Of a stretch of 64,000 nt of DNA, positions 26,389 to 41,263 are shown one piece after another (position 1 is the first letter of the stretch; each line of letters starts with the position of its first letter). The stretch comes from an uncultured Desulfobacterales bacterium (GTDB lineage: Bacteria; Desulfobacterota; Desulfobacteria; Desulfobacterales; CAJINA01): the NCBI GenBank assembly GCA_964636125.1, contig CAZWPX010000023.1, forward strand, positions 1,010 to 65,009, written 5' to 3'. Made by a program: the position numbers and the translations under genes. The notes beneath the pieces were generated by a model, which was given only the letters and a program-made list of their open reading frames with translations, was not told the DNA's origin and did not search any database.

Positions 26389-27894
26389 CTAAAAAGCACC
26401 AATAACCGTGCCGAACAGATCCAGCACAGGTTTGGGATAAAGTCCCAGCCCCAGGGCCAAGGCCGCCAGGGCCAGCAGGGGCAGGCTCATGGATAGAGAC
26501 GGGTCGGATGGCGGATGGCCTGATACGGATGGTTTTTGCGGGCCAAAAAAGATCCGGATACCGACCAGAAACGTGTACACAAGGGTTAAGATGGTTGAAA
26601 GTACCGCCAGCAGGACGACAAACAGCCCCATGGGCGAGCTGTGAAATGCCTTGAAGGCCCCCACAAACAGTATCCATTTGCCCACAAACCCACTGGTAGG
26701 CGGCAGGGCGGAAAGAATAAGCGCGGCCGAAAACCAGAGTACCCCGGTCAGGGGCATGCGCGACCAGAGGCCCCCCATATCTTTCAGCTTCCGTGACTCC
26801 ACGTGATAAACCAAAATTCCGGCTGTTGAGAACAGGATCGCCTTGCCGATTATGTGGCTTAAGAAATAGAACATGCCCCCCGTGACTCCCCAGACTGTCA
26901 TGACACTTATGCCAAGCACCGAATAAGAAATCTGGCTGATCGTGGAACAGGCGCAGAACCGTTTGACGTCTGTCTGGGCCAGCGTCAACAGGGCCCCGTA
27001 GATCATGGTAGCGGTGGCCAGAATCAGCATGGGGAGAACCAGCGGGGTAAGCTCATTTTGAAGAGGTAAAATCAGGACCCGCACTGCCACGTAAACGGCT
27101 ATATTGGCATAAATCGCCAGCAAGCCTGCGATGCAGGTGGGATGCTCGGCATGCACCCAGGGCATCCAGACGTGCAGCGGTATGATGGCCAGTTTGGTCG
27201 CCAGACCCAGTAAAATGATAACCGCGATCCAGATGGTCACGGGATTGCCCGCCAGACGCGGTAATTCGGCAATTTCGAAACTTCCAATCTGCACGTACCC
27301 CATGATGATGCCGATCAGGAAAAATGTTGCTCCAACAACCCCCCAGAAAAGACACATCAGGGCAACCTTGTAGCGCGTAATATAATCGGAATATCCGAAT
27401 TGTGCCATGATGAAGTAAAGGGGAATAATGGTTAACAGCTCCATGAAAAAGTAGACCGACAACAGATTCGTGGCAAAGGCAACCCCCATAAAACCGGTGG
27501 GGAAGAAAAGATAGAGCAGAAAGAACCGGCGGAAATAGAGATTGTAGACCCGGTGGGAACATTGTCCGTATATAAGCTCGATCCGGTGTTCGACGTAGTG
27601 AAGCGAGTAGATGGCCAGGGCCAGGCAAATCAGGTTGATAATCAGGGCCATAGGCAGGCTTAAACCGTCCGCCAGCATATTAAGACTGACTTCAGGGCCG
27701 ATGAAATACTGCTCACGCAGGACCTCGCCCCCATATACGCGGATACCCGCAAAGCCCAGCAGCAACGTGGTGTAGACGAGCGTGGCGATGGTAATCCACC
27801 CGGGTAAATGGCTTTTCCGGGCGCTGCGGGTGAACCCTGTCACGGCTGCCGCTACCAGCGGCAGGCCCACTATCTGGAGAAGTAAATAGGGCAT
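26389..27894 (-). CDS. MrpD/NuoM/NuoN-family antiporter-like subunit (4th copy, operon-distal)
   Basis: 501 aa and about 14 TM helices. Proton-conducting membrane transporter pattern: HVWMPWVHAEHPTCIAGLLA and FCACSTISQISYSVLG. Confidence 0.85.
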   Translation of the reverse strand: MPYLLLQIVGLPLVAAAVTGFTRSARKSHLPGWITIATLVYTTLLLGFAGIRVYGGEVLREQYFIGPEVSLNMLADGLSLPMALIINLICLALAIYSLHYVEHRIELIYGQCSHRVYNLYFRRFFLLYLFFPTGFMGVAFATNLLSVYFFMELLTIIPLYFIMAQFGYSDYITRYKVALMCLFWGVVGATFFLIGIIMGYVQIGSFEIAELPRLAGNPVTIWIAVIILLGLATKLAIIPLHVWMPWVHAEHPTCIAGLLAIYANIAVYVAVRVLILPLQNELTPLVLPMLILATATMIYGALLTLAQTDVKRFCACSTISQISYSVLGISVMTVWGVTGGMFYFLSHIIGKAILFSTAGILVYHVESRKLKDMGGLWSRMPLTGVLWFSAALILSALPPTSGFVGKWILFVGAFKAFHSSPMGLFVVLLAVLSTILTLVYTFLVGIRIFFGPQKPSVSGHPPSDPSLSMSLPLLALAALALGLGLYPKPVLDLFGTVIGAF

Positions 27895-27898: not shown

Positions 27899-29668
27899 TT
27901 ATCCGGTCCAATAGATCATGATCCACAATAATACGATGAAAAACAGTAAAATATGTGTCAGGTTAAAAGAGAGCAGCTTGACCTCCGTTTTTAAATAGCG
28001 GGCCCGGGCATGGATGAACTCCGGAAGGGCGGTCAGCTTTTTGTGAAAGAGATAATCGTTTCTCTCTTCAGTGCCCACGGCCCACCGGGGCGATGCTTTC
28101 AAGGTTGTCACGACTCCCAGCAGGGCGCGCTCCATGTTTTCAAAAAAGCGTTGCAGCGGCTTTTCGCAAAAAAGGATAAATTGCCGCCCCGGCAGACGCA
28201 GGAACCAGTCGGCATCCAGATTGACGGCCCGCATTTCAGCCGGGTAGTAACCGGAGAGAACCAGCAGCGTGAAGGCCAGCGCCCCGAACATGAGCAACTC
28301 CAGGACGCCGATCACGTGAAAAGCGGTGTAGGGTATGAAATCAACCGGATACGGCAAAATACGGTAAAGAGGGTCTGGATAGACACCCAAGAACACACAG
28401 ATGAAGGCCGCCATGCCCATGGCCAGGCGCATGTTGATCGGGGGCTCCTTGGTCCGGATGCCGGAATCATGACCGAAAAAGATAAAAAAGGGCACCTTGA
28501 TGCCGGCGTGGTGAAACACGCCCGCGGAGGCGAACAGCAGCATGAACCAGACGATGGTTAAATGCTCCTCGGCCACGGCGGTAATCGTCATGGATTTGCT
28601 GATAAAACCGCTGAAAAGCGGAAAGGCCGAAATGGAGGCCGCCCCGATCATGCAGCAGACCGCTGTATAAGGCATGGTTTTATAAAGTCCCCCAAGGTCG
28701 GTCCCCCTTATTTTACCGGTCATATGCAAGACGGCTCCGGTGGACATGAACAAGAGCGCCTTGTAGATGATATGGCAGAAGGCATGGGCGGCGACACCGT
28801 TCAAGGCCAAGTGTGTCCCGATGCCGATGCCGCAAACCATAAAACCCACCTGGTTGATGAGACTGTAGGCCAGGACGCGGCGCATGTCATTGGCAATCAC
28901 CGCATAGAAAATGGGGAAACAGGTCATAAAGGCGCCCGCCCAGATAAGAAAAGGGGTGCCCGGATAGGTCCTGGCCAGGATGTAGACCGCACTTTTAGTC
29001 GTCAGGGCGCTCATGAACACAGCCCCGGTGACCGTGGCCCGGGGGTAGGCATCCGCCAGCCAGGCGTGCATCGGAAAAACGACGGCGTTTAAACAGAACC
29101 CGATGAATATCAGATAGGTGGAAGGATCGCTCAATCCGATATAGGCAAAGGCAATGGTGTCCCGTTCCAGGAAGTATAAAATAATGCCGGCCAGTAAACA
29201 GAGCCCCCCGAAAAAGTGCCACAGGAAGTATCGCAGGGCGGCCTTGTTAGAGTCCTCGGTCCTGCGTGCGAGGATCAGGAAAACCGAGGCCAGGGCCATG
29301 GCCTCCCAGAAAAAATAGAGCGAAATCAAATCGCCGACAAAGGTCACCCCCAGAGCCCCGCCGGCATAGAACAGGGCCGCGACGTGCTGGCCATCGTCTT
29401 TGACGTGGAGCGCGTAAATTACACCTATCAAGGTGATTAAAACGAAAACATATCCGAAAACCATGCTCAGCCGGTCCACCCGCCCCAGAATGAGGTCCTG
29501 GTTCAAAAAGGGCACAATCCAGTAGGTGCCGCTGTCCATTGCCAGCAGATTGACAAAGGCCAGCACCGGCAGCATGACCAGATAGGCGGCTTTCAGCCGT
29601 CCTTTCAGCACCGGGACCAGGAGCGCCCCGGCCATGAAGATGAATGCGGGCGGCAGAGGCTTAATCAT
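27899..29668 (-). CDS. MrpA/NuoL-like antiporter subunit with a C-terminal amphipathic extension + terminal TM
   Basis: 589 aa with HAWLADAYPRATVTGAVFMSALTTKSAVY and LAYSLINQVGFMVCGIG. The last ~110 aa (…FLRLPGRQFILFCEKPLQRFFENMERALLGVVTTL…LTHILLFFIVLLWIMIYW) resemble a NuoL-type lateral helix plus an anchor TM. Confidence 0.8.
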   Translation of the reverse strand: MIKPLPPAFIFMAGALLVPVLKGRLKAAYLVMLPVLAFVNLLAMDSGTYWIVPFLNQDLILGRVDRLSMVFGYVFVLITLIGVIYALHVKDDGQHVAALFYAGGALGVTFVGDLISLYFFWEAMALASVFLILARRTEDSNKAALRYFLWHFFGGLCLLAGIILYFLERDTIAFAYIGLSDPSTYLIFIGFCLNAVVFPMHAWLADAYPRATVTGAVFMSALTTKSAVYILARTYPGTPFLIWAGAFMTCFPIFYAVIANDMRRVLAYSLINQVGFMVCGIGIGTHLALNGVAAHAFCHIIYKALLFMSTGAVLHMTGKIRGTDLGGLYKTMPYTAVCCMIGAASISAFPLFSGFISKSMTITAVAEEHLTIVWFMLLFASAGVFHHAGIKVPFFIFFGHDSGIRTKEPPINMRLAMGMAAFICVFLGVYPDPLYRILPYPVDFIPYTAFHVIGVLELLMFGALAFTLLVLSGYYPAEMRAVNLDADWFLRLPGRQFILFCEKPLQRFFENMERALLGVVTTLKASPRWAVGTEERNDYLFHKKLTALPEFIHARARYLKTEVKLLSFNLTHILLFFIVLLWIMIYWTG

Positions 29669-29909
29669 AGTAGTCTTCCTTTTTCTTGACCAGTGCGCGC
29701 AGCCCTTTGGCGATGAATATCAAGCTGACGCACCCGATGAACCCGTAGGCCGCAAAAAAGCAGGGGACCTCTTCCCATGCGAAATGGCCGTGCTTGGGAA
29801 CAAACGGATCAATGGCCAGCAGCAAAACCAGGGCGATATAAAAAAAGATCCGGACTCTTTTTTGATTGCGGGCAGAATCGAGAAACGTGAGCTCCTTTTT
29901 CGGCGGCAT
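29661..29909 (-). CDS. Small membrane protein (2 TM) inside the mrp-like operon
   Basis: 82 aa. Its stop overlaps the downstream start by 8 nt. Hydrophobic segments are IFFYIALVLLLAI and FFAAYGFIGCVSLIFIA. Confidence 0.5.
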   Translation of the reverse strand: MPPKKELTFLDSARNQKRVRIFFYIALVLLLAIDPFVPKHGHFAWEEVPCFFAAYGFIGCVSLIFIAKGLRALVKKKEDYYD

Positions 29910-29921: not shown

Positions 29922-30113
29922 CTAGTAGTAAAAAAAAGTTACGCCCAGATGGAGCAGGCCAATTAAAACCATGAGAAAAAAAATCTTCTTGTAAAAGGGA
30001 TCGGCGGTATGTGAAAGCTCCATTTTTTCTTCAAATCCGGTGAGCCAGGCGGTAATTTCGCCATCGTCCTGCCGGTAGATGATTTCCTCGCCGTCTTTTT
30101 CAATGCCCGCCAT
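29922..30113 (-). CDS. Small protein with a C-terminal TM, inside the mrp-like operon
   Basis: 63 aa with an acidic N-terminus and IFFLMVLIGLLHLGVTFF. Tightly packed between operon genes (12-16 nt gaps). Confidence 0.45.
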   Translation of the reverse strand: MAGIEKDGEEIIYRQDDGEITAWLTGFEEKMELSHTADPFYKKIFFLMVLIGLLHLGVTFFYY

Positions 30114-30129: not shown

Positions 30130-31644
30130 TTAAGGGTTGAAGAGATTGTTTACCGCAATTTCAACCAGATCCAGGATGAAAAAAGTCCCCGGAAAAAAAC
30201 AAAACACAATCGAAAAAATAGCCGTCAGCGCAAGCGGGACAACCATGAACAGGTAAAGCGGACGACTGGTCTCCAACCTCGCCACGGCTGCGCTGCCCCC
30301 GGCTGTGTCTTCCAGGGGAATGTCAAAAAAGGCGGTTTTCACGATGGGGAAAAAGTAGATCACATCCAGAAGGGAACTGACCAGGATAACACCCAGGAAA
30401 ATCAAATGCCCTGACTGGACGGATCCGAGGCAGAGATACCATTTGCTGATAAAGCCGGCCACCGGCGGTGCACCGCACATCCCGACGGCACCGACTGTAA
30501 AGGCGGCCATGGTGATCGGCATCTGCCGGCCGATACCGGTCAACTGGCTGATGGCTTTCTTGCCGGTGATCACCATGATAGTGCCGGCGCAAAGAAAAAG
30601 TGTGATTTTCATGAAAGCATGAAAAGGAATGTGGATCATGGCGCCTTTAATGCCGAAAGGGCTCAACAAAGCCACACCGAACAGGATGTAGGAAAGCTGG
30701 CTGATGGTGGAATAGGCCAGGCGGCGTTTCAGGTTGTCCTGGCCGATGGCCAGAAATGAGGCCACAATCATCGTAAAGGAGGCCACCCCTCCCAGCAGCA
30801 GACCCAGCCCCAGTTCCGAGAAGAGATCGATGCCGAAGATATGGCACACGATCCTGACAAACCCGAAGACACCGGCCTTGACAACCGCCACGGCATGTAA
30901 AAGGGAGCTGACCGGGGTAGGTGCGACCATGGCGGCCGGCAACCAGGAATGCAGGGGCATCCAGGCCGCTTTCATGGAGCCCAGTGCAAACAGGACAAAA
31001 AGCACGATCAGGGTCCACCGGGGCGCGGTGCTGGTGTCCAGGATACCACCGTCTGTGAATTGGGTTGTGCCGGCCAGGGCATACGTCAAGACCACGGCTG
31101 CGAATAAAAACCAGCCGGAAGCAAGCAGGTAGGTCAGATACTTCCGGGTGGCGGCAAAGGCCTCTTCGTCTTCGTGATGGGCAACCAGCCAGTAGGTGGA
31201 CAGCGTCAGGGCTTCATAAAACACGTAGAAGGTAACCAGGTTTTCAGCCATGGCGATGCAGACCGCCGAGAAGATCGCCAGCGCGAACATGCCGTAGTAG
31301 CGGGTCTGGGCATGCTCCTGCAAAGCGCGCATATATCCGATGGAGTAGAGCGAAACGAGAATCCAGAGAAAGGAGGCGGTGATGGCAAAAAGAAGGCCGA
31401 AGGCATCCACCCTGAATCCCAGTTCAAGCCCGGGACAAATGTCAATCAGGCGCAGCACGATCACTTTCCCGGCCAGAATAGGCGGTGCCATGGAGATGAC
31501 AACGGCAAACAACAGCCCCGCCGCGACCAGGGTGCAGGCCTCCCTGACATTGGGCTGTTTGCGGCAGATATAGATCATGCCGGCGCCCAGCAGCGGACAG
31601 CCCAGCGCCAGGATCGGTTTCAAAGATGCGACGGTTCCGGTCAT
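30130..31644 (-). CDS. MrpD/NuoM/NuoN-family antiporter-like subunit (2nd copy)
   Basis: 504 aa with HSWLPAAMVAPTPVSSLLHAVAVVKAGVF and LAYSTISQLSYILFG. ATGA overlap with the upstream gene. Confidence 0.85.
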   Translation of the reverse strand: MTGTVASLKPILALGCPLLGAGMIYICRKQPNVREACTLVAAGLLFAVVISMAPPILAGKVIVLRLIDICPGLELGFRVDAFGLLFAITASFLWILVSLYSIGYMRALQEHAQTRYYGMFALAIFSAVCIAMAENLVTFYVFYEALTLSTYWLVAHHEDEEAFAATRKYLTYLLASGWFLFAAVVLTYALAGTTQFTDGGILDTSTAPRWTLIVLFVLFALGSMKAAWMPLHSWLPAAMVAPTPVSSLLHAVAVVKAGVFGFVRIVCHIFGIDLFSELGLGLLLGGVASFTMIVASFLAIGQDNLKRRLAYSTISQLSYILFGVALLSPFGIKGAMIHIPFHAFMKITLFLCAGTIMVITGKKAISQLTGIGRQMPITMAAFTVGAVGMCGAPPVAGFISKWYLCLGSVQSGHLIFLGVILVSSLLDVIYFFPIVKTAFFDIPLEDTAGGSAAVARLETSRPLYLFMVVPLALTAIFSIVFCFFPGTFFILDLVEIAVNNLFNP

Positions 31645-33146
31645 GGCCGCACCTCCAGTCCGAAGCTGGTATTAATGGCGCTGACCAGGGGGTCGAAAGC
31701 ACCGGTAATCCAGATAATGCCGATGACAAATGTTAAAACCGCGGTGGACAAAATCGGGATCAGCATACTCAGGGGAGCCTCGGCCACCGGGGGGGCCAGG
31801 GCGGCACTGCTTTCACTATCCGCCCGGATGTACATGATTTCAACAACCCGCCAGAAATAGACGATCATCAGCAGCGTACTGAAAAAAATGACCCCCACCA
31901 ACAGGTACTTCTGGGCATCCAGCGCGGCCAGGAGCAAATACCATTTGGTCACAAATCCCGCGCTGGGCGGCATCCCGATCATGGAGAGGGCGGCGAGTAT
32001 CAGCGCGAAACTGGTATAGGGCATTTTGCGGCTGAGACCCTCGAATTGCCTGATATCCACCAGGCCGGCCTTGTAGATAAACGCTCCGGCCACCATGAAC
32101 ATGCACACCTTGATGACCGCATGATTCAAGATATGCATCAGGCCCGGGGTCAGGCCAAAAGGGGTCAGGGGCGCAAGCGTGACGGCCAGGACGATATAGC
32201 CGACATTGGCAACGCTCGAATAGGCCAGCATTCGTTTAAAATCATGCTGATAGATCGCAAATATGGAGCCGGCCACGATGGCGATGGCGGCTATCGCCCG
32301 CAGGATATCGAACAGCGGCAGGAAAGTGGTGACAAACTCAAGGGTAAAGACCGAAAAAATAATGCGAACCAGCGCATAGACCAATGTCTTGGCCATAGCG
32401 CTGGAAATGATCACACTGACCGCCGAGGGTGCGTAAGTATAAGCATCCGGCTGCCAGGCGTGTAAAGGGAAAAGTGCGATTTTGATGCCGAATCCAATCA
32501 GGATGAAAACAAACGCGGCCTGGATGGCTGTCGATGTGTAAAGGGGCGGCAGTAGAACACGCAGATCTTCCATATTCAGGGATCCGGTCATGATATAAAG
32601 ATATCCTACCCCGATCAGGTAAAAACAGGCGCCGATGGTCCCGAGGATCAGATACCGGAAACTGGCCAGGGTGGCTCTCCCCTTGCCGATGGCAATGAGG
32701 GCGTAACCGCTCAGGGACACGACCTCCAGAAGCACAAAAAGGTTAAACATGTCGGCGGTGACGATGATCCCGAGCAGCCCCGTGATCAACAGAAGGTACA
32801 GGCTCCAGAACAGTGCGACCTTGTCCGGCAGTTCCGCCTCTACGGATCTTCGGCTGTAGACGGCGGCGAGCAGGGACAGGGCTGTTACCAGGATCAGCAT
32901 GCAGGCATTGAAGTGGTCTACCCGGTACTCGATCCCCCAGGGGGGCTGCCAGCCGCCCAGCAGGTACTGGATCGTCCCCTGGGCAACAACGGATTTCAAC
33001 AGGACACAGGCTGAAATAAGGCTGACCCCCAGCGCGACAAGCGCCAGCGAAAAAGCGAAACGTTTCAACCACCAGCCTGACAGGAATATCAGGAAAGATA
33101 TCAGCAGCGGGGCAATAACAACGATAACTGGTAATTGCAGGCTCAT
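31641..33146 (-). CDS. MrpD/NuoM/NuoN-family antiporter-like subunit (1st copy)
   Basis: 501 aa with HAWQPDAYTYAPSAVSVIISSAMAKTLVY and LAYSSVANVGYIVLA. Its start overlaps the stop of the cNMP-binding gene (ATGA). Confidence 0.85.
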   Translation of the reverse strand: MSLQLPVIVVIAPLLISFLIFLSGWWLKRFAFSLALVALGVSLISACVLLKSVVAQGTIQYLLGGWQPPWGIEYRVDHFNACMLILVTALSLLAAVYSRRSVEAELPDKVALFWSLYLLLITGLLGIIVTADMFNLFVLLEVVSLSGYALIAIGKGRATLASFRYLILGTIGACFYLIGVGYLYIMTGSLNMEDLRVLLPPLYTSTAIQAAFVFILIGFGIKIALFPLHAWQPDAYTYAPSAVSVIISSAMAKTLVYALVRIIFSVFTLEFVTTFLPLFDILRAIAAIAIVAGSIFAIYQHDFKRMLAYSSVANVGYIVLAVTLAPLTPFGLTPGLMHILNHAVIKVCMFMVAGAFIYKAGLVDIRQFEGLSRKMPYTSFALILAALSMIGMPPSAGFVTKWYLLLAALDAQKYLLVGVIFFSTLLMIVYFWRVVEIMYIRADSESSAALAPPVAEAPLSMLIPILSTAVLTFVIGIIWITGAFDPLVSAINTSFGLEVRP

Positions 33147-33628
33147 TCTATTTTAAACAGGCCTTTCATGTCCGGATGATGCTGTATCACTTTGAGAAAT
33201 TGCTCCGTGCGATGGTCATAGCGCTTTTTCAGGATTATCAGGAGCCTCTGGCTCAGTAAAAATCCCATCTGCGGATCCTGGGCGCACAGCTTTCTCAACT
33301 GATTGCCGCGTATGGAAAATATTTCACAGGGCTCGGTGCATACGGCGTCGGTGGTGTAGTGCCCCTCCTCGATCATGGTTGACCAGCCGAATGCATAGCC
33401 GGATTTGATGGAACCGACAGAGACGGTGACCAGTTCGGTCATAGTCTGCTCTAAAAGCACCTTGCCCCTTTTGACCATATAAAAGCGATCGGCAACATCG
33501 CCCTGCCTGAAGATGACCTCCTGATCATGGAATGACAGGACATCGACAGACGCACCTACCCGTGCGAGCATATCGTCTTCAAGATAGGTCATGATGACGA
33601 TCTCTTTTAACTCTTCAATGGGAACCAC
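33143..33628 (-). CDS. Stand-alone cyclic-nucleotide-binding (CAP effector) domain protein
   Basis: 161 aa. A strong SD (AAGAGGAGG) precedes it. The pattern VIFRQGDVADRFYMVKRGKVLLEQ...GYAFGWSTMIE...AVCTEPCEIFSIRGNQLRKL is a cNMP-binding beta-barrel plus hinge helix. No DNA-binding domain is present. Confidence 0.85.
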   Translation of the reverse strand: MVPIEELKEIVIMTYLEDDMLARVGASVDVLSFHDQEVIFRQGDVADRFYMVKRGKVLLEQTMTELVTVSVGSIKSGYAFGWSTMIEEGHYTTDAVCTEPCEIFSIRGNQLRKLCAQDPQMGFLLSQRLLIILKKRYDHRTEQFLKVIQHHPDMKGLFKIE

Positions 33629-33660
33629 GGCACCTCCTCTTCTTTATGACGGCAACCGTT

Positions 33661-33827
33661 CAAAAGACCCTTTTGAGACAGCTTTTAGAAGCTGCCTCAA
33701 GAATGAATTTTGGTCCAAGGTCAAGGCGGCCGCGAGGTTCCAACCGGAGGAATACTCCGGTATTTCGAGGATTGGAACCAAGCGCCCAACGCCGAGATTG
33801 GGCCAAAAGACTTTTTTGAGACAGCTT
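33661..33827. repeat. Structured 199-bp gap in the mrp-like operon: 24-nt direct repeats flanking nested inverted repeats
   Basis: The direct repeats are caaaagacccttttgagacagctt (33661-84) and caaaagacttttttgagacagctt (33804-27), 22/24 identical. A GAGACAGCTT-ttag-AAGCTGCCTC hairpin starts at ~33675. GGTTCCAACCGGAG-gaata-CTCCGG...TTGGAACC spans 33736-79. Confidence 0.5.
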
Positions 33828-34223
33828 CTAATCTTCTTCCAACTGGGCCAGAATCTCATCCTCCTCCAGGGTGTGGTACTGCTTGTGCAGCTTGATAATC
33901 AATGCCAGAGCCACACCGAGGGTCGCCACGGCCACGACGATGGCCGTCAGCATCAGTACATGGGGCAGCGGGTTGGCATAATTCACCGCCTGAGCAGCAT
34001 GCGTTTCGATGCCATGTGCATGTTCAATAATCGGTAGCGTGGCTCTATGCTTGGCCCCGATGGAAATAAAAAAGAGGATGACCGCCGTTTGCAAAATGTT
34101 CATCCCGACGATTTTCTTTACCATGTTGTTCTTGGCAATCATGGCGTACAGCCCGACCATCATCAGGACAATGTACACCCAGTAATTCAGCTTGGCGGTA
34201 ATAATCGCAACCAGTTCATGCAT
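33828..34223 (-). CDS. mrpC: Mrp subunit C (NuoK-like)
   Basis: 131 aa. KKIVGMNILQTAVILFFISIG and PLPHVLMLTAIVVAVATLGVALALI are typical of MnhC/MrpC/MbhG. Confidence 0.85.
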   Translation of the reverse strand: MHELVAIITAKLNYWVYIVLMMVGLYAMIAKNNMVKKIVGMNILQTAVILFFISIGAKHRATLPIIEHAHGIETHAAQAVNYANPLPHVLMLTAIVVAVATLGVALALIIKLHKQYHTLEEDEILAQLEED

Positions 34224-34225: not shown

Positions 34226-35056
34226 TTATAGCCCTTCATCAAATTTCCCGCCCGAGGAGAGGTTGTAGTAAAGGCTGATCATGGCCGCCATCACAGCCAT
34301 CCCCACGCCGATTTCCACGATGAGAATTCCATGGGAACGGGCGGTCACCGGGTCAACCCCCAAAACGGGAGCAAGCGCGCTGTAATCCAGAAAATTGGCA
34401 CCCTGCAGCAGGCAGAGTCCGCCGGTGGCGGCATACAGGAACACACCCAGGGTACACAGCAGCACTGCAATTTTTTCACCGAGTCTGTGCAAAGATGATC
34501 GCAGGTTATGGGATATGGCGTAGACAATGACCGAGGCGCCCAGAATGACCCCGCCCTGGAAGCCGCCCCCGGGACTGTGATGACCGTGGGCAATGACGTA
34601 CAGGGCGAAAAGCTGGATAAAGGGAATGATCATGCGGCAGGTGGTCTTGACGACAACGCCATGGGGAACCCATTGCAGGTCAATCCTTTCAAAGTCGGCG
34701 GATTCGCGGGGATAGCGGCCGCCCTTTTTTATCCGGAAAGTCGTGCCGGTGGGAATGTGTCGATACATACGATTTTCCGGCTCATCGGTTTTGGTTTGCC
34801 GCAGCAGCAGGAAACAGGCGGCTACCGCTGTAAAAATGACAATGGTCTCGAACATCGTGTCATACCCGCGATAGTCAGCCAGGACTGCGGTGACAATGTT
34901 CGGGACCGAGGTATCTTCAAGGGTATGCTCGATATAGTAAGGTGATACATGTGTATTTGCAGGCGAACCGGGATCGCCCCAGTCGGGAAAATCCAGTGTG
35001 CAGTACATTAAAGAAATGCCGAATATCAGCACAACAACTTTCGCTATGGTGTTCAA
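34226..35056 (-). CDS. mrpB: MrpB/MnhB-domain subunit (MbhE+MbhF-like fusion)
   Basis: 276 aa. NIVTAVLADYRGYDTMFETIVIFTA and HSPGGGFQGGVILGA are MnhB hallmarks. Confidence 0.8.
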   Translation of the reverse strand: MNTIAKVVVLIFGISLMYCTLDFPDWGDPGSPANTHVSPYYIEHTLEDTSVPNIVTAVLADYRGYDTMFETIVIFTAVAACFLLLRQTKTDEPENRMYRHIPTGTTFRIKKGGRYPRESADFERIDLQWVPHGVVVKTTCRMIIPFIQLFALYVIAHGHHSPGGGFQGGVILGASVIVYAISHNLRSSLHRLGEKIAVLLCTLGVFLYAATGGLCLLQGANFLDYSALAPVLGVDPVTARSHGILIVEIGVGMAVMAAMISLYYNLSSGGKFDEGL

Positions 35057-35298
35057 TCCCTGGTTCTCCTTGAAGTTCTGAATACAGCGGCGACAAACAG
35101 CACCGTACTGATGCCGGCCCCCACGGATGCTTCGGTAAAGGCGACATCAACCGCCCCCATGATGGCCCACAAAAGACACATCATGAAGCTGTAAGCCCCA
35201 AAAAGGATGGCCGCCCCCAGCAGGTCTTTCACCGTGATGGCAGCTATGGCGGTAATAACGACCATTAGAAGCACGATCATTTCAATAGCCCATATCAT
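35053..35298 (-). CDS. DUF4040 / MbhD-like small membrane subunit
   Basis: 81 aa with LLGAAILFGAYSFMMCLLWAIMGAVDVAFTEASVGAGISTVLF. 4-nt overlaps on both sides. Confidence 0.7.
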   Translation of the reverse strand: MIWAIEMIVLLMVVITAIAAITVKDLLGAAILFGAYSFMMCLLWAIMGAVDVAFTEASVGAGISTVLFVAAVFRTSRRTRD

Positions 35299-35618
35299 GG
35301 TCTGTTCTTCTCCCTGGTCCAGGGACGCAGGCCGGCTCTGACACCTGCGTCAATGATGGCATGCGTTGCCGTGGGGCTCGTAAAGAAAACGAAGACAACG
35401 ATCAGTATGATCTTAAAAGCGGTTAACAGAGAATGGCCGGTCAAATCCTGGAGGGTGTACAGCGCCATGGCCGACATGGCCAGGACATGTCCGGCGGTGT
35501 CCAGTTTACCCGCCGGGTGCAGGCGGGTATAAAAATCAGGCAACCGGATGATCCCAATAGATCCTCCGGTAAAAAACAGGAGCCCGCCCACGAAAAGCAC
35601 TATGACAATGACATCCAT
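35295..35618 (-). CDS. mrpG: Mrp subunit G
   Basis: GGSIGIIRLPDFYTRLHPAGKLDTAG and FTSPTATHAIIDAG are MnhG/MrpG signatures. Confidence 0.85.
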   Translation of the reverse strand: MDVIVIVLFVGGLLFFTGGSIGIIRLPDFYTRLHPAGKLDTAGHVLAMSAMALYTLQDLTGHSLLTAFKIILIVVFVFFTSPTATHAIIDAGVRAGLRPWTREKNRP

Positions 35619-35623: not shown

Positions 35624-35920
35624 CTACCTTTCCCCGGATGGGGGGGCTTCGTCATACAGCCCTTTTCTCTTCTGGAAAAACCTAGAGGCCGCCAGCACGG
35701 CAATAAAATTCAACATGGCGTAAGCCAGCGCAATATCAACAAACATGTCAACCCGCTGGTAAAGCAGCCCGATCAGAACTAGCAGTACGGTCGTCTTGGA
35801 GCCGATGGCGTTGACCCCGATAAGGCGATCGAGAATAGTGGGTCCGGTTACCGCCCGGTAAAGCGGGAGCAGCATAGCCAGGCATAAAAAAATGCCGGTA
35901 TAGAGAAAGAAAATATCCAT
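35624..35920 (-). CDS. mrpF: Mrp subunit F
   Basis: LYRAVTGPTILDRLIGVNAIGSKTTVLLVLIG...DIALAYAMLNFIAVLAASRF is the MrpF/PhaF pattern. Confidence 0.85.
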   Translation of the reverse strand: MDIFFLYTGIFLCLAMLLPLYRAVTGPTILDRLIGVNAIGSKTTVLLVLIGLLYQRVDMFVDIALAYAMLNFIAVLAASRFFQKRKGLYDEAPPSGER

Positions 35921-36510
35921 TATTTTGCGAAAACCTTCGCAATTTTGGCTTCCATTTCACCAGGAAGCGGTTTTCCTGATTCCATATCGATACAGTGTAC
36001 GGAGAACTTTCCTGCGGCCGTCACATGGACCGTGATGGTCCCGGGTGTCAACGTAATGGAATTGGCAAAAGTGGTACGGGCGACATCGCTGGAGAGTTTG
36101 CTGTCGAATTCTATGATCTTGGGATCGATCAGTTCCCGCATACGCGGGTGAAACACCAGGTACATGACATGCAGGTTTGCCAGAAAGATTTGATAAAGCA
36201 GCCATGGAATATAGCCCACAAACCGCAACCATACGAGAGGCAAATTCCGGTCCAGGGGCGCTGGAAAGAGTAAATCCCCGGATAAAAAAGCGACAATACC
36301 GCAGGAAACGGCACCCAAGATCAGATGGAATGCGTCAAATCTCCCTGAAAACACCAGCCACATTGCAAACATTGCCAGGAAGGTCAGCCAGAAGCCTGCG
36401 CCGAACCGCCTCGTTTTGACAGACAGGGGACTGCTTTCGACCTTTATTGATCTCGGCGGGTTGGATTGGGGCAAGCCGTTAGGGTCAGAAGTACGATTGG
36501 AAGTAGGCAT
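35920..36510 (-). CDS. mrpE: Mrp subunit E (with a ~45-aa N-terminal extension)
   Basis: FAMWLVFSGRFDAFHLILGAVSCGIVA...ANLHVMYLVFHP...TFANSITLTPGTITV is the MnhE pattern. It is the first gene of the operon. Confidence 0.8.
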   Translation of the reverse strand: MPTSNRTSDPNGLPQSNPPRSIKVESSPLSVKTRRFGAGFWLTFLAMFAMWLVFSGRFDAFHLILGAVSCGIVAFLSGDLLFPAPLDRNLPLVWLRFVGYIPWLLYQIFLANLHVMYLVFHPRMRELIDPKIIEFDSKLSSDVARTTFANSITLTPGTITVHVTAAGKFSVHCIDMESGKPLPGEMEAKIAKVFAK

Positions 36511-37695: not shown

Positions 37696-38157
37696 TTAAC
37701 CCAGTGCAAAAACCAGCAGGTTGAGCGTATCCTGATAAATACAGGGGTCCTTGCTCGCCCGCGGTCCGGCCACGTTGAGCACCTCGATACGCTGGAGTTC
37801 GATCCACGAGGCCACCAGGGAGGCGGCATCGTTCAAGTTGCTGTGGTTGTTTAAATCGATTCCCAGCAGCTGTTTGCCCCGCCGCAGGACCACCACCCGG
37901 GTGTAATCCGTCCCGCCGGTGGGCGTTCCCCGGGAAATCAGCAGGGTCCCGTCGGACTCCAGCACATTTTTGTCTGTCCGTTTGCTGTAGCTGTCGGTGG
38001 GCATTTCCACCAGGTTGTAGGTTTCCGGCAGGGACCCGTCTTCGGTGAGTCGTCCTTTGGGGAGCCACCCGCCATGGGGAATGCCCAGTCGTATGGCCGC
38101 ATCCAGGGCTGCCTGGTCCGCACCCGTCTGACCGCCTGATATGATCTTCTTCAGCAT
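37696..38157 (-). CDS. SLOG-superfamily protein, putative molybdenum-cofactor-carrier-like (YpsA-like)
   Basis: Start at 38157 (GGTGAAGG SD). MLKKIISGGQTGADQAALDAAIRLGIPHGGWLPKGR is the N-terminal GGQTGAD Rossmann-like motif of that family. Confidence 0.7.
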   Translation of the reverse strand: MLKKIISGGQTGADQAALDAAIRLGIPHGGWLPKGRLTEDGSLPETYNLVEMPTDSYSKRTDKNVLESDGTLLISRGTPTGGTDYTRVVVLRRGKQLLGIDLNNHSNLNDAASLVASWIELQRIEVLNVAGPRASKDPCIYQDTLNLLVFALG

Positions 38158-38458
38158 GATGCCTTCACCTTTTCTTTTTACCTGGGGCAAAATTGGGAAT
38201 CGTTCGATATGGGTTTGAAAGGCGTGTCATGAATTCTCCACGACCTTTTCTATGCCACGATCTGTAGCACATAGTTGTAAAAATTGGAACTGCGTCACGC
38301 AACCCGCAGTTGACAAGCTCCGCTGTGCTTCAGTAACCTGTCCCGCAATAAACAGCGGTAGTGTTACCTTACAGGTCAGCTTTCAGGCTTATATTAATCC
38401 GTGGAAGCGGCAGCTATATTCTCAATTTGAAAACTTCAACACCATCAACGGAGTGATA

Positions 38459-39790
38459 ATGGCCAGGCCTGCAAAAGGATCCGCCATAAACGGCATCTTC
38501 ATCTTCCTGATTCTATCCGGTATCCTGGCGGCCCTGGCCATGGGAAACATGGAAAAGGTCACCAAGGCTTCATTTGATGCGGCCAAAACCGCAGTGGAAC
38601 TTGCCATCGGCCTGGTAGGGGCCATGGCCCTTTGGCTGGGGCTGATGAAAGTGGTCGAGCAGGCCGGTCTGCTGCTGGTCATTGCCCGGCGCCTTAAACC
38701 CGTGATGACCAGACTTTTCCCGGATGTGCCGGGCGAGCACCCGGCCATGAGCGCCATGATCATGAACATGGCCTCAAATATCATGGGCCTGGGCAACGCG
38801 GCCACGCCCTTCGGCATCAAAGCCATGGAAGAGCTGAACCGCCTGAATCCGAACAAGGGTACGGCCACCCATTCCATGTGCCTATTCCTTGCAATCAATA
38901 CCAGCAGTGTCACCCTGCTCCCCATGGGGGTGATCGCCGTGAGGGCCGGCGCCGGGGCTCTGGATCCGGCCGGCATCTTACTGCCGTCCATTTTTTCTAC
39001 CACCTGCTCAACGCTTGTGGCCATCACTGCGGCTAAAATCCTGGCCCGGGGTTCCGCTCAGAGTCCCCCGCCCCATGAGGCCGCCCGTCTGGAAGCCACG
39101 AATACCGAAAGACAGGCTGCGTTTGAATCCGACACGCCGCAAGAACCACTGACAGCGCAGGGATGGCGACGCCTCTGCCTGCCGGGTTATTTTCTGGTAT
39201 TTTCAATCGCACTGGCAACCTACCTGACCCTGCATATCACCGGTGGGGCCGGCCCGGGTGAGTTCCTCCTGAAACAACTGCCGACCTGGCTGATTCCGTT
39301 CCTCATGGGGCTGTTCGTGGTTTACGGTTTCAGCCGCAGGGTTCCGGTGTATGAAACGGTCTGTGAGGGTGCCAAAGAGGGCTTCAAGGTGGCGCTGCGC
39401 ATCATTCCCTTTCTGGTGGCCATCCTGGTGGCCATTACTGTTTTTCGTTCATCCGGCGCACTGGAGCTATTGATCACAGCCATTGAACCGGCCACCGCCC
39501 TGATCGGCATGCCGGCCGACACTCTGCCCATGGCACTGGTGCGGCCGCTTTCGGGTTCCGGCGCTTTCGGGGTAATGAGCGATATCATCAGCAGCGCGCC
39601 GGATTCGCGCTCAGCCTTTATTGCCAGTATCATGCAGGGCTCCACAGAAACGACGTTTTATGTTCTGGCAGTCTACTTCGGAGCGGTTGGCATCACCCGT
39701 GTTCGCTATGCAGTCACGGCCGCACTGCTGGCTGACCTGGCCGGTTTTCTGGCCGCGGTCTTCTGGGGCAATCTGTTCTATGCCGGTTAA
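38459..39790 (+). CDS. Nucleoside-recognition-domain membrane protein (fused SpmA/SpmB-like)
   Basis: I chose the ATG at 38459 (GGAG upstream); the 69 codons before it in the track ORF look non-coding. The first half has GLGNAATPFGIKAMEEL (SpmA-like). The second half has LVRPLSGSGAFGVMSDI...QGSTETTFYVLAVYFG (SpmB-like). Confidence 0.85.
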   Translation: MARPAKGSAINGIFIFLILSGILAALAMGNMEKVTKASFDAAKTAVELAIGLVGAMALWLGLMKVVEQAGLLLVIARRLKPVMTRLFPDVPGEHPAMSAMIMNMASNIMGLGNAATPFGIKAMEELNRLNPNKGTATHSMCLFLAINTSSVTLLPMGVIAVRAGAGALDPAGILLPSIFSTTCSTLVAITAAKILARGSAQSPPPHEAARLEATNTERQAAFESDTPQEPLTAQGWRRLCLPGYFLVFSIALATYLTLHITGGAGPGEFLLKQLPTWLIPFLMGLFVVYGFSRRVPVYETVCEGAKEGFKVALRIIPFLVAILVAITVFRSSGALELLITAIEPATALIGMPADTLPMALVRPLSGSGAFGVMSDIISSAPDSRSAFIASIMQGSTETTFYVLAVYFGAVGITRVRYAVTAALLADLAGFLAAVFWGNLFYAG

Positions 39791-39807
39791 CCCGTTTCGC
39801 CACTGAG

Positions 39808-39838
39808 GCCAGCGTGCGAGCGCAGAGAGTTCCCTGGC
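39808..39838 (+). repeat. Conserved intergenic hairpin, copy 2
   Basis: GCCAGcG-tgcgagcgcagagagtt-CCCTGGC, 18 nt after the stop at 39790. It shares GTGCGAGCGCAG..AGTTCCCTG with 13451..13481. Confidence 0.5.
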
Positions 39839-39918
39839 ACCTGGATTTTACATTTCTCTATTAAGGCCTTATGATCAGATATCTTATATAGGGGCAACAA
39901 ACCGAAGAGGTGATCTCC

Positions 39919-40218
39919 ATGAAGTTATTTATCGCGGCCTTCCTGTTTTTCACCCTGGCCCCCGCGGCCCAGGCCCAGAGGGGCGACGGCAGTACCTACC
40001 GCTGCCAGAATTCTGAACTTATCCATGTCGGCGACTCAGCCTTTCTCATCAAATTGAAATGCGGACCGCCGACCCACAAAGAGGTGATTAATACCGGCTA
40101 CGGCAAAGGAGGCCAGATTGTAACGGAGTGGTACTACCCGAGGAAGAACGGCTGGTACGGCGTTCTGACGATACGCGCCGGTAAACTCATCAGAATTGGC
40201 ACCATTCAAACAAGATGA
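39919..40218 (+). CDS. Secreted DUF2845-like protein
   Basis: ATG at 39919 (GAAGAGGTG SD) and signal peptide MKLFIAAFLFFTLAPAAQA. YRCQNSELIHVGDSAFLIKLKCGPP...EWYY...LTIRAGKLIRI fits my memory of DUF2845. Confidence 0.65.
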   Translation: MKLFIAAFLFFTLAPAAQAQRGDGSTYRCQNSELIHVGDSAFLIKLKCGPPTHKEVINTGYGKGGQIVTEWYYPRKNGWYGVLTIRAGKLIRIGTIQTR

Positions 40219-40262
40219 ACAGTGAACCTGAGCCCAGCCTTTTTTTTACAGGTTACAGACCA

Positions 40263-40388
40263 TCAGCAGCAACAGGGATCCACACGGCAGCCGCAGGGGT
40301 CTACGTAGTAACAACAACAGCTGGAACTGGAAGTTTCCTCGCTGCTCTCTTCCTTGGTTTCAGTTTTTACATCTTTATCGTTGGACAT
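40263..40388 (-). CDS. Unannotated 41-aa cysteine-rich peptide (metallothionein-like or RiPP-precursor-like)
   Basis: Below the track's size cut-off. A perfect SD (AGGAGGT) lies 6 nt before the ATG at 40388. My codon-by-codon hand translation is MSNDKDVKTETKEESSEETSSSSCCCYYVDPCGCRVDPCCC*. It competes with the low-GC3 + ORF 40215..40403. Confidence 0.45.
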   Translation of the reverse strand: MSNDKDVKTETKEESSEETSSSSCCCYYVDPCGCRVDPCCC

Positions 40389-40432
40389 ATTGTTACCTCC
40401 TGAAATCGGAAAGGTTATTTTGAATTAGTTTT

Positions 40433-40495
40433 GTCATTCCGGCGCATGCCGGAATCCAGCGGTATTACTGGATACCGGATCAAGTCCGATATGAC
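40433..40495. repeat. REP/MITE-like palindromic element
   Basis: GTCATTCCGGCgcatGCCGGAATCCAG...CTGGATACCGGATCAAGTCCGATATGAC has GTCAT/ATGAC termini and an 8-bp ATTCCGGC/GCCGGAAT hairpin. It belongs to the widespread element class that yields spurious VIPA.AGIQ peptides. Confidence 0.6.
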
Positions 40496-40614
40496 GGCCT
40501 ACACATAATAAGTTGCCGGGTTAATACCAGCGGGATGAGCCTGGCGAAAACCGCACCTGAGTTTTTTAGGCATTCGAGAAACTATTAATATAAGCGCAAA
40601 TAACGGGGGTAAAT

Positions 40615-41016
40615 ATGCATCCGCGTCCATGGGTCGGAGTGGGGGTCATCATCACACGCAACGGAAAGATCCTGCTCGGCAAACGCCGTAACGCCCACGG
40701 CGAGGGCACCTGGTGCTGCCCCGGCGGGCACCTGGAATACGGTGAAACCCTGGAAGCCTGCGCCCGGCGCGAAGTCCGCGAAGAGACAGGACTGGAGATC
40801 GTGGACGTTCAGCGCGGCGCCTTCACCAATGACCTGTTTGCTAAAGAGGGCAAACACTATGTCACCCTCTATATGCGGGCCAATTGCCCGACTGGAACCC
40901 CCGCGGTATGCGAGCCCGAAAAGTGTTCAGCATGGGCCTGGTTTTCTCCCAAGGCACTACCCGAACCTCTGTTTCTACCCCTTCAAAACCTGCTCCAAGA
41001 CGGCTATAGTCTCTAA
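40615..41016 (+). CDS. NUDIX hydrolase (MutT-like)
   Basis: The Nudix box GGHLEYGETLEACARREVREETGL is present (GX5EX7REUXEEXGU). Confidence 0.9.
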   Translation: MHPRPWVGVGVIITRNGKILLGKRRNAHGEGTWCCPGGHLEYGETLEACARREVREETGLEIVDVQRGAFTNDLFAKEGKHYVTLYMRANCPTGTPAVCEPEKCSAWAWFSPKALPEPLFLPLQNLLQDGYSL

Positions 41017-41263
41017 AAACTGCCGGCTCCTTTCGGTCAAATCAATTCTGTTTGCCACCCATTTTCCAGACCTTTGCAGGGATATCAAAGCCGACACAAC
41101 CAGATACCCGGGTCTACTATCGCCTTAAAAATCGCAAACTAAGGGCAATCTTCAGGCCACCGAAACCTTAAGACACTGATATTTAATGAATATAATTCCT
41201 ATATCAGTCCTTTACATTTTTGCTTTTTTTGCACATACTTAGTTTACACATTGTTTGTAAGCA

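Follow-up and report, generated by a model that had tools for sequence, protein, structure and literature searches.

The ion-pumping membrane arm of complex I and the Mbh-type hydrogenases are considered to derive from Mrp antiporters, and the Mrp complexes solved so far consist, to our knowledge, of membrane subunits only, without a dedicated sensor. In the sperm Na+/H+ exchanger SLC9C1 and the MloK1/HCN channels, the CNBD is fused to the rest of the protein and its phosphate-binding cassette (PBC) is canonical, and KefF and KefG are ancillary proteins of the KefC/KefB K+/H+ antiporters, KefF being a flavodoxin-like quinone reductase.

As to the composition of Mrp clusters, MrpA to MrpG are the only subunits named in the part of the 2017 Mrp review that deals with cluster arrangements (PMC5703873), and no description of a soluble CRP-like Mrp component was found in the literature or, by term search, in the available text of the same review. 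This agrees with the initial annotation of the locus studied here, which had placed a soluble sensor outside the textbook Mrp/Mbh description. The locus encodes, within an Mrp-like operon, a small protein of the CRP type, as does every related lineage that was sampled; the synteny of its gene and its sensor-like fold suggest that the Mrp-type complex has a soluble partner or regulator not described before.

An Mrp-like operon with a split MrpA

The window, i.e., the whole stretch of 64,000 nt that was analysed, contains an operon on the minus strand whose first gene is mrpE-like (nt 35920-36510, recognised by NCBIfam MrpE models). It is followed by mrpF-like (nt 35624-35920) and mrpG-like (nt 35295-35618) genes, assigned through the syntenic genes of locus L001 (PF04066 and PF03334, respectively) and through tblastn, which for mrpF showed conservation across loci; by a gene for an 81-aa MbhD-like protein, a piece of the MrpA C-terminal region (nt 35053-35298; PF13244, 2.3e-21); by a fused MbhE and MrpB-like gene coding for 276 aa (nt 34226-35056; PF20501 and PF04039); and by mrpC (NuoK-like, nt 33828-34223; PF00420 and NCBIfam MrpC models), directly upstream of the CRP-like gene. 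Downstream of the latter lie two MrpD-like antiporter subunit genes, D1 (501 aa, nt 31641-33146; PF00361, 1.3e-52) and D2 (504 aa, nt 30130-31644; PF00361, 8.6e-58); s63, a 63-aa ORF of the four-pump operon type (nt 29922-30113), without a Pfam match and retrieved by tblastn in L005, L018, L028, L036, L051 and others; s82, coding for an 82-aa small membrane protein (nt 29661-29909; tblastn and called small genes, weak PF24838 match); D3, coding for a NuoL-like antiporter subunit of 589 aa with a C-terminal extension (nt 27899-29668; NF009310, 712 bits, above the cut-off); and D4, for a fourth, NuoM-like antiporter subunit of 501 aa (nt 26389-27894; PF00361, best NCBIfam match TIGR01972). In most loci s82 precedes D3, and in the window it overlaps the D3 start by 8 nt.

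Homologues of MrpB, C, D, E, F and G are therefore gathered in one cluster (F and G by synteny and the Pfam matches of L001), as they are in the single operons of the canonical Mrp (CPA3) systems, MrpA-G, of Bacillus, Anoxybacillus and Dietzia. On the contrary, a single large MrpA is not encoded, being split into MbhD, the MbhE-MnhB fusion and separate PF00361 subunits, including D3; further differences from canonical Mrp are the three or four pumps in place of two, the two small ORFs and the CRP-like protein. The archaeal Mbh, Mbx and Mbs contain an Mrp-like module with which the operon shares the arrangement of its leading genes (E, F, G, MbhD, MbhE/B, C, D) and the Pfam matches to MBH subunits D and E. 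An Mbh/Mbx/Mbs-type respiratory complex was considered and rejected, since neither NuoB/C/D/I-like catalytic subunits of the hydrogenase-type periphery nor a NuoH-like subunit were detected in the operon or in the flanking ORFs, and they were likewise absent in L001, L003, L094, L099 and L101; the only soluble products are the CRP-like protein and a flanking one of 219 aa. Judged by its gene content, the complex is a stand-alone Mrp-like predicted cation/proton antiporter, with three or four MrpD/NuoL-type pumps and a split MrpA.

The 219-aa flanking gene lies on the plus strand (nt 25726-26385) and flanks the operon in 36 of the loci retrieved. Its product, without a Pfam match, is predicted to adopt a tandem ferredoxin-like fold (AlphaFold pLDDT 83; Foldseek matches to ABM-type proteins) and is a possible second soluble partner of the operon complex.

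The 161-aa protein and its remodelled loop

The CRP-like gene (nt 33143-33628, minus strand) starts with GTG and codes for 161 aa. This start is favoured over the internal Met13 because the 12 N-terminal residues (MVxxEDLKxIV) are kept in homologues, and a size of 158-161 aa was observed for most of the 270 homologue matches and for all loci kept from 322 metagenomic relatives. The sole Pfam domain is PF00027, cNMP_binding (residues 32-118), which scores 59.9 bits where the cut-off is 27.5; Pfam detected neither an HTH nor a kinase or channel domain. In the AlphaFold model (pLDDT 91.7), the eight-stranded beta-barrel typical of the cNMP_binding fold superfamily leads into a single long helix at the C-terminus (residues 119-149), and no further element is present. 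Foldseek matched the model to CRP, GlxR and PKG domains with E values of about 1e-12, the top structures being apo-GlxR and M. tuberculosis CRP (TM 0.73-0.80) and the stand-alone Gmet_1532 protein, 3mdp (TM 0.90), and hhalign paired the protein with CRP residues 6-157 at a probability of 95%. The N-terminal sensor domain and the C-helix of CRP/FNR proteins are both recognised by these comparisons. The winged HTH is absent: the protein ends at residue 161, just past the helix D equivalent, with a single helix after residue 119. The initial annotation had described it as only a CAP-type cNMP-binding domain with no HTH, kinase or channel part, and this description is borne out.

In its architecture, the 161-aa protein looks like a truncated CRP/FNR regulator. 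Indeed, it has the beta-barrel, the long C-helix and the helix-D tail in common with the sensor domains of E. coli CRP, M. tuberculosis CRP and C. glutamicum GlxR, but is without their winged HTH, has the PBC Glu and Arg replaced, and is encoded within a membrane-complex operon instead of alone. The tail contains a conserved helix motif (residues 136-153, RYDHRTEQFLKVIQHHPD, nt 33170-33223, minus strand), RTEQFLxxIxxHPD, which hhalign pairs with CRP helix D (GRIAQTLLNLAKQPDA); R136, R140, T141 and P152 are each at least 90% conserved among homologues.

The equivalent of the PBC spans residues 80-95 (FGWSTMIEEGHYTTDA, nt 33344-33391, minus strand). The canonical cassette, FGE...R[ST]A, contacts the ribose 2'-OH through Glu and the cyclic phosphate through Arg. 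Alignments to PKA/PKG-type domains and to CRP indicated that Trp82 replaces the Glu and Tyr91/Thr92 replace the Arg, so that the loop reads FGW82...Y91-T92-T93; no Arg occurs anywhere in residues 80-95, and among 236 relatives Arg is the commonest residue at no loop position. CAP, PKA, Epac and HCN domains that lose this Arg bind cNMP far less well or not at all, and CRP/FNR relatives without it (FNR, CooA, NtcA and CprK) respond to other signals. The 161-aa protein is thus probably not a cyclic-nucleotide sensor, as it had first been labelled, both residues that define such a cassette having been replaced, and the database labels "CRP-like cAMP-binding protein" and "cyclic AMP-dependent transcriptional regulator" are probably wrong on both counts.

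The substituted loop is itself strongly conserved. All of 151 close relatives have FGWSTM (100%), with Y91 at 99% and T92 at 100%, and 85 distant relatives have W in 63% and Y/H in 67% at the positions of Trp82 and Tyr91, respectively. Together with the C-terminal helix motif, the loop forms the most conserved surface of the protein, and for this reason we read the pocket as remodelled rather than decayed, the loop being, by the alignments, under very strong purifying selection. The check that had been proposed, whether the cassette residues for cAMP/cGMP are conserved, therefore came out negative for the canonical pair and positive for their substitutes. A metal or FeS site at Cys97/Cys101 was rejected as a family-wide feature, the two residues being 98% and 92% conserved in the close clade and only 61% and 41% in distant relatives.

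Both in sequence (best single-domain PDB match, 8.4e-9) and in structure (TMt 0.90, rmsd 1.8 A), the protein is nearest to 3mdp (Gmet_1532 of Geobacter metallireducens, 142 aa), a structural-genomics "putative cyclic nucleotide-binding protein" that likewise stands alone and shares the non-canonical loop, "FGvSsLIkpyHYTssA". It is, however, only 26% identical, has Val for Trp82 and is shorter at the C-terminus by about 20 residues, among them the HPD motif.

Gene borders and conserved synteny

The Shine-Dalgarno (SD) site of the CRP-like gene (GAGGAGGTG, nt 33631-33639, minus strand) forms an anti-SD duplex of -13.0 kcal/mol and is, as first noted, the strongest among the 13 operon genes, D2 coming second with -10.6; only 2 nt separate the 9-mer from the GTG, a short spacing. 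At the other end, the TGA stop and the ATG of the first MrpD-like gene (501 aa) share the tetranucleotide ATGA (nt 33143-33146, minus strand), also in accordance with the initial annotation. Coupling into the operon holds on this downstream side only, because 199 nt that include a palindromic element separate the gene from mrpC (nt 33629-33827, minus strand). The palindrome measures 150 nt, most of it in this intergenic region, with arms at nt 33685-33718 and 33798-33831, the outer one extending 4 nt into the end of mrpC, and its predicted RNA fold has -85.4 kcal/mol (z -5.3). A riboswitch or an internal regulatory RNA specific to the CRP-like gene was rejected as the primary reading, since copies of the palindrome are present at other, unrelated positions in the related loci L009 and L025 and the upstream spacer of the gene varies from 5 to 321 nt in relatives. 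A role of the palindromic spacer in segmental mRNA stability is conceivable.

The ATGA overlap is confined to the window and its closest relatives (L005-L007). In the relatives as a whole, the gap to the downstream gene is mostly 1-18 nt (full range -4 to 469 nt), and because intergenic distances vary on both sides, translational coupling does not appear as a conserved requirement. The stoichiometric co-production that had been deduced from the overlap is, as a consequence, poorly founded, the overlap being lineage-specific and adjacency alone conserved.

Adjacency was assessed in relatives retrieved from metagenomes with an alignment of nine sequences. The search returned 322, the best 80 of which were kept (46-75% identity); 65 of these 80 loci had at least 500 nt upstream. 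An Mrp gene lies directly upstream of the CRP-like gene in 64 of the 65 (MrpC in 57, D3 in seven), and D1 lies downstream in 54 of the 62 loci with at least 700 nt on that side. Two gene orders thus carry the gene, D3 being its direct upstream neighbour in the second. More distant members, at 55, 43, 41, 37 and 34% identity, each follow directly after an s82-like and D3-like pair, and in a complete genome of 3.3 Mb that encodes a distant member the order is E-F-G-MbhD-B-C-D-D-s83-D583-cNMP. In L008, a trio of s80, D3 and the CRP-like gene occurs without other Mrp genes in about 6 kb upstream. D3 is therefore the subunit most consistently encoded beside the CRP-like gene, and in the reverse test both independent operons retrieved through D3 alone (2/2) contained it. 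For two relatives at 26% and 38% identity (L097 and L098), tblastn could not be applied to the short upstream fragments, whose C-termini are similar to the "SPVG + terminal TM" end of D3 in L095, a likeness that is suggestive only.

The co-occurrence proposed in the initial annotation is hence well supported: it extends to 64/65 loci, to members of only 34% identity and to the two operons retrieved through D3, far more than chance would give. A degenerate pocket together with an absence of synteny had been named as the finding that would speak against a cNMP-type subunit: the canonical residues are indeed lost, though the loop is conserved, and synteny is very strong. Among the 150 best representatives no fusion to any Mrp subunit was found. 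In one family member, P0163, the domain precedes two PAS domains and a HisKA fragment in a single chain; read-through probably accounts for P0174 and P0255, and P0249, P0253, P0256, P0285 and P0291 have unrelated N-terminal extensions. The CRP-like protein is about 53% identical in loci whose MbhD reaches about 88% and MrpC about 70%, and so evolves faster than the core membrane subunits. Such a rate is unusual for a tightly bound stoichiometric subunit and counts somewhat against one, although the divergence of D1 and D3 equals its own.

Candidate roles and distribution

The reading that we favour, with a probability of roughly one half, is that this HTH-less relative of the CRP/FNR sensors acts as a dedicated, co-expressed partner of the Mrp-like antiporter, with a remodelled loop that is non-canonical for cAMP/cGMP. 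According to this model, the protein would dimerise through its C-helix and the dimer would dock on the cytoplasmic face of the complex, most likely on the 589-aa D3 and its 82-aa companion; the conserved FGWS...YT loop might then sense a small molecule other than cAMP/cGMP, or the redox state through Cys97/Cys101, and the bound protein would modulate ion translocation or complex assembly. The same logic, in which a cation/proton transporter is under the control of a sensor module in the cytoplasm, applies by analogy to SLC9C1, MloK1/HCN and KefF/KefG. KefF in particular is, like the CRP-like protein, a separate soluble product of the operon of its antiporter, but has no CRP fold; moreover, those transporters are CPA1, CPA2 or channels, whereas the operon described here is of the CPA3/Mrp type.

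A more specific form of the partner model is only tentatively put forward, as we hold it to be rather less probable than the general one: a CRP-type cytoplasmic subunit bound to D3/s82 would switch the three- or four-pump complex on or off according to a signal other than a cyclic nucleotide, be it a metabolite or a redox change, the 219-aa neighbour being perhaps a second peripheral component. Such a ligand-gated Mrp, if true, would be the first case of a soluble sensor subunit in any Mrp or complex-I-type membrane arm. More generally, a conserved CRP-type partner would show regulation at the protein level across a whole clade of Mrp machines, would offer a handle for the isolation of an uncharacterised three- or four-pump Mrp variant, and would add a large and well-defined family, marked by the FGWS...YT loop and the RTEQF...HPD tail, to the CRP-fold domains whose signal is not cAMP.

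The same conservation could be read without any ligand. The CRP-like fold would then be the scaffold of a structural subunit or assembly factor, and the conserved loop a protein-protein interface that serves in the construction or stabilisation of the multi-pump complex; loop and C-terminal helix motif suit a contact surface no less than a pocket, the synteny with s82-D3 is kept, and no ligand can be predicted. We consider this unlikely, though the best placed of the alternatives, since P0163 uses the domain as the N-terminal module of a PAS/His-kinase-type protein, which points to a sensory function, and a bare scaffold would not need the whole barrel-plus-lid architecture of ligand-binding CRP domains.

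Retention of the CRP dimerisation helix and of a helix-D-like tail, with the DNA-binding HTH gone, would also suit a decoy that feeds back on transcription, either by forming heterodimers with a full-length CRP/FNR protein through the C-helix or by binding RNA polymerase, and a strong SD of its own with variable spacers could permit separate control of its level. A transcription regulator, however, need not stay in a structural operon through two gene orders and down to 34% identity; the gene invariably has structural genes before it or on both sides and in no case takes the divergent or upstream position that is usual for regulators, and no full-length CRP/FNR-type gene was present among the called neighbours of L001, L003, L094, L099 and L101. 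A decoy appears, on balance, improbable.

Still less credit can be given to the proposal closest to the initial annotation, namely a genuine cAMP/cGMP receptor that makes the antiporter cyclic-nucleotide-gated as a stoichiometric subunit. Its operon membership is conserved, the Pfam cNMP_binding score is well over threshold and the best sequence and fold matches include cAMP- or cGMP-bound domains of PKA, PKG, CRP and GlxR, but the exchange of both contact residues and the Arg-free loop make this reading very doubtful, and no nucleotide cyclase was detected among the 36 window ORFs scanned. An unrelated hitch-hiking gene, for instance the remnant of a degraded regulator, could explain why the protein diverges faster than the core subunits but is hardly credible given the constant length of most homologues, the strict purifying selection on the loop, and the retention of the gene through operon rearrangement and in both D3-seeded operons.

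The carriers of the dedicated partner proposed here, identified by source name only, include Deltaproteobacteria, Desulfobacterales, Desulfosarcina, Thermodesulfobacteriota, Nitrospinota and Pseudomonadota MAGs, as well as the Olavius algarvensis Delta 4 endosymbiont, a name taken from the match of the 219-aa neighbour. The clade is abundant in marine-sediment and symbiont bacteria of the Desulfobacterota type.

A CRP-type domain without helix-turn-helix

The gene at 33143..33628 (minus strand) is an intact ORF coding for a 161-aa protein, here termed cNMP-like, from a GTG start that is supported by the conservation of residues 1–12 in the homologues. In agreement with the initial annotation, which described the product as the binding domain only, the sole Pfam domain was PF00027 (cNMP_binding; 59.9 bits, cut-off 27.5; residues 32–118), and NCBIfam gave only sub-threshold matches, to CRP, FtrB, NtcA, FixK and the cNMP-like insert of family 2B encapsulins. 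An AlphaFold model obtained from a 41-sequence alignment (pLDDT 91.7, pTM 0.82) consists of a beta-barrel followed by a single continuous helix (residues 119–149), with no further element. Foldseek comparison of this model with the PDB retrieved apo-GlxR, M. tuberculosis CRP and PKG/PKA domains (TMq 0.73–0.80), together with 3mdp (TMt 0.90, rmsd 1.8 Å), which was also the top single-domain PDB match by sequence (8.4e-9) and corresponds to Gmet_1532 of Geobacter metallireducens, a 142-aa structural-genomics protein that likewise stands alone. Profile comparison of the family with E. coli CRP (manually entered sequence) gave 95% probability and paired the C-terminal motif RTEQFLxxIxxHPD with 'GRIAQTLLNLAKQPDA' of CRP helix D, the helix with which the DNA-binding domain begins. 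Because the cNMP-like protein, unlike CRP, ends at the helix-D equivalent, the most fitting description is a sensor module of CRP/FNR type from which the helix-turn-helix (HTH) has been lost. Several relatives (P0010, P0019, P0023 and others) are publicly annotated as 'CRP-like cAMP-binding protein' or 'CRP/FNR family cyclic AMP-dependent transcriptional regulator'; these proteins have neither a DNA-binding domain nor the cAMP-contact residues.

Operon organization and conservation among relatives

The operon comprises 13 genes on the minus strand (mrpE-mrpF-mrpG-MbhD-like-MbhE/MrpB-mrpC-cNMP-D1-D2-s63-s82-D3-D4), opening with mrpE (36510–35920), with mrpF, mrpG, the MbhD-like gene and the fused MbhE/MrpB gene lying between it and mrpC (34223–33828), just before the cNMP-like gene. 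Four pump subunits (D1 to D4) follow: the MrpD-like D1 (501 aa), directly after the cNMP-like gene, and D2 (504 aa), then, past the small ORFs s63 (29922–30113) and s82 (29661–29909), the latter overlapping the D3 start by 8 nt, D3 (589 aa; NF009310 at 712 bits, over the model's cut-off) and last the NuoM-like D4 (501 aa). Only a weak match to the 8xMP membrane family was found for s82 (19.8 bits, below cut-off); a small s82-like ORF precedes D3 in most loci, including distant ones where the cNMP-like gene comes last, and s63 is restricted to the four-pump operon type. The first genes are in Mbh order; differently from Mrp, MrpA is split and three or four pump subunits occur across the relatives. 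No hydrogenase-type or NuoH-like subunit was found in or near the operon, so an Mbh/Mbx/Mbs complex was rejected; the complex is Mrp-like (CPA3).

Neighbouring genes are closely packed (junctions of −8 to +16 nt), the one exception being the 199 nt between mrpC and the cNMP-like gene. The latter does have, as initially reported, the strongest Shine-Dalgarno site in the operon (GAGGAGGTG, −13.0 kcal/mol; runner-up D2, −10.6), and its TGA indeed shares ATGA (33143–33146) with the D1 ATG. Beyond the window, this overlap is seen in its closest relatives alone (L005–L007), the cNMP-to-D1 gap elsewhere being mostly 1–18 nt and up to 344–469 nt; thus the proposed translational coupling holds locally and not as a conserved trait, and the conserved property is the co-operonic placement of the gene. 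Stoichiometric co-production, for which the overlap was initially taken to argue, is a conjecture. Between mrpC and the cNMP-like gene, relatives have 5 to 321 nt; in the window this spacer holds a nested imperfect palindrome of ≈150 nt (33685–33831; outer arms 34 nt, inner arms 28 nt), which has a 27-nt direct repeat at its flanks (33661–33687 and 33804–33830) and folds, as RNA, at −85.4 kcal/mol (z = −5.3). Related copies lie at other positions in loci L025 (3138–3263, 4501–4660) and L009 (2955–3073), so the palindrome looks like a small MITE/REP-like repetitive element and not a trait of the cNMP-like gene. Other long hairpin-rich spacers were seen at the same intergenic site in relatives (L017, 321 nt, −141.6 kcal/mol; L085, 221 nt, −83.8 kcal/mol).

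A word-indexed search retrieved 270 homologues, the best 120 of which share at least 66% identity and measure 146–173 aa (nearly all 158–161 aa), and 1.84 billion representatives, searched exhaustively with HMMER, gave dozens more full-length relatives (155–170 aa, 25–55% identity). Scanning metagenomes with an alignment of 9 sequences as query yielded 322 relatives; the best 80 (46–75% identity) were kept, and the window's Mrp proteins were placed on their loci by tblastn. Where at least 500 nt were available upstream (65 loci), the gene directly upstream was mrpC in 57 and D3 in 7, the last one having no tblastn Mrp match in its 793 nt. Where the downstream sequence reached at least 700 nt (62 loci), D1 directly followed in 54 and no Mrp gene was detected by tblastn in 8; five of these 8 have D3 directly upstream, a second order in which the cNMP-like gene closes the series (…D2-s82-D3-cNMP). 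The distant members all directly follow an s82-like and D3-like pair (L008, 55% identity; L091–93, 43%; L089, 41%; L090, 37%; L094–96, 34%), L095 coming from the complete 3.3-Mb genome CP090009.1, with order E-F-G-MbhD-B-C-D-D-s83-D583-cNMP. Conversely, when two D3 homologues were picked regardless of the cNMP-like gene (P0413, P0375), both operons carried it between mrpC and D1. Co-occurrence with Mrp genes was thus confirmed, with an Mrp gene adjoining upstream in 64/65 loci. Taken together, the two gene orders, the distant members and the D3-seeded operons indicate that the gene has been kept through at least one rearrangement, in the three-pump as well as the four-pump operon subtype and across widely diverged sequences; judging from these loci, its most constant co-encoded partner is D3, usually plus a small s82-like ORF.

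In L008, a module of an 80-aa ORF (s80), a 589-aa D3-like gene and the cNMP-like gene (5981–8486) has no further Mrp gene in ≈6 kb upstream, which suggests that D3/s82 and the CRP-like protein may form an independent unit. Usp, YjbR, MCP-signal and LysM proteins are encoded next to it. The genes preceding other distant cNMP-like genes (L095 7671–7970, L097 1–261, L098 2–205) end in G-[LT]-S-P-V-G, one terminal TM helix and a stop, a common pattern suggesting that relatives at 26% and 38% identity may also follow a D3-type subunit; the tail of the window's D3 is unlike it.

The ligand loop and the possible role of the protein

In CAP, PKA, Epac and HCN domains a Glu contacts the ribose 2'-OH and an Arg the cyclic phosphate. 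Both positions are replaced in the cNMP-like protein, whose phosphate-binding cassette is non-canonical: HMMER alignments to PKA/PKG-type domains set FGW82STMIEEGHY91T opposite FGE....R[ST], alignment with CRP sets W82 opposite Glu72 and T92 opposite Arg82, and residues 80–95 (FGWSTMIEEGHYTTDA) contain no Arg in whichever register. With this Glu and Arg absent, canonical cAMP or cGMP binding appears unlikely. The loop shows no decay: FGWSTM is invariant (100%) and Y91 and T92 are conserved at 99% and 100% in 151 close relatives, and W (63%), S83 (64%) and Y/H at 91 (67%) persist in 85 distant full-length ones, where R136, R140 and T141 of the C-terminal helix are also conserved (78–82%). Such conservation shows a pocket or loop remodelled and under selection, which would fit either another ligand or a protein interface. 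A sensory role for the domain is indicated by P0163 (511 aa, metagenomic representative), in which it precedes, with its RTxQF...HPD tail, two PAS domains and a HisKA fragment. P0177 resembles a truncated form of this architecture. A CxxxC pair on adjacent strands (AVC97TEPC101E, 33326–33340), conserved at 98%/92% in the close clade versus 61%/41% in distant relatives, could be a lineage-specific thiol switch.

We consider, with a probability of about one half, that this soluble protein is a partner dedicated to the Mrp-like complex. Dimerized through the C-helix, it would dock on the cytoplasmic side, with D3/s82 as the likeliest site, and the FGWS...YT loop would sense a signal other than cAMP/cGMP, thereby modulating transport or assembly of the complex. 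Functional analogies, although not homologous systems, can be drawn to the sperm Na+/H+ exchanger SLC9C1 with its CNBD, the CNBD-gated MloK1/HCN channels and KefF/KefG, soluble ancillary proteins of the KefC/KefB antiporters. Against a dedicated partner count the lack of any fusion of the domain to an Mrp subunit among the representatives examined and its faster divergence than MbhD, MrpC and MrpF in the same loci, though not than D1 and D3.

The loop, if an interface, would also suit a structural or assembly factor acting independently of any ligand, a reading with a minor share of the probability. A CRP decoy acting on transcription, conceivable for an HTH-less module, is rather improbable given the constant placement of the gene among structural genes. 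The chances are slight for the genuine cAMP/cGMP sensor originally proposed from the domain, whose loop is non-canonical with Glu and Arg replaced; of the initial interpretation, the operon association stands and the cyclic-nucleotide receptor probably does not. An unrelated hitch-hiker gene is scarcely credible.

On this evidence the locus is an Mrp-type operon that encodes, as a conserved soluble component, a CRP-fold protein which is probably no cyclic-nucleotide receptor. A 2017 review on Mrp describes Groups 1–3 and irregular clusters, and its text contains neither 'cyclic' nor 'cAMP' (PMC5703873). Full-text literature search, the incomplete coverage of which leaves absence unproven, found no paper linking a cyclic-nucleotide-binding protein to Mrp, MrpA or MrpD. 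The association is robust, widespread and apparently unreported, and yields, on wholly genomic evidence, a concrete biochemical hypothesis.

Flanking genes

A gene coding for a 219-aa protein (25726–26385, plus strand), with internal duplication and no Pfam match, flanks the Mrp-like operon in 36 of the loci fetched (52–82% identity), lying either convergent past the last pump gene or, where it shares the strand, ahead of mrpE or downstream. Its AlphaFold model (pLDDT 83) has a tandem ferredoxin-like (ABM/Dabb-type) fold, matching the putative monooxygenases 3f44 and 2pgc and the coproheme-decarboxylase/chlorite-dismutase fold (TM ≈0.6); this protein too may be a soluble partner of the complex. 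The 'roadblock/LC7' label in some JGI records is unsupported by this model.

No nucleotide cyclase was found among the window ORFs scanned for domains. Very large plus-strand ORFs (2363, 872, 2398 and 546 aa, the last with PfaD_N, NMO and FabD-helical domains) occupy window 3978–22344, upstream of a CdhD-like gene, and from their sequence look like a PUFA-synthase or polyketide-type cluster. Synteny with locus L001 (116–5562) reaches past the operon, over window 37696–43054, with a cpYpsA gene (37696–38190), a Gate-domain transporter (38252–39790) and a GAF-HisKA-HATPase-receiver hybrid kinase (41264–43054); on the operon's other side, the SBP_bac_3 and CdhD genes likewise recur in L001.
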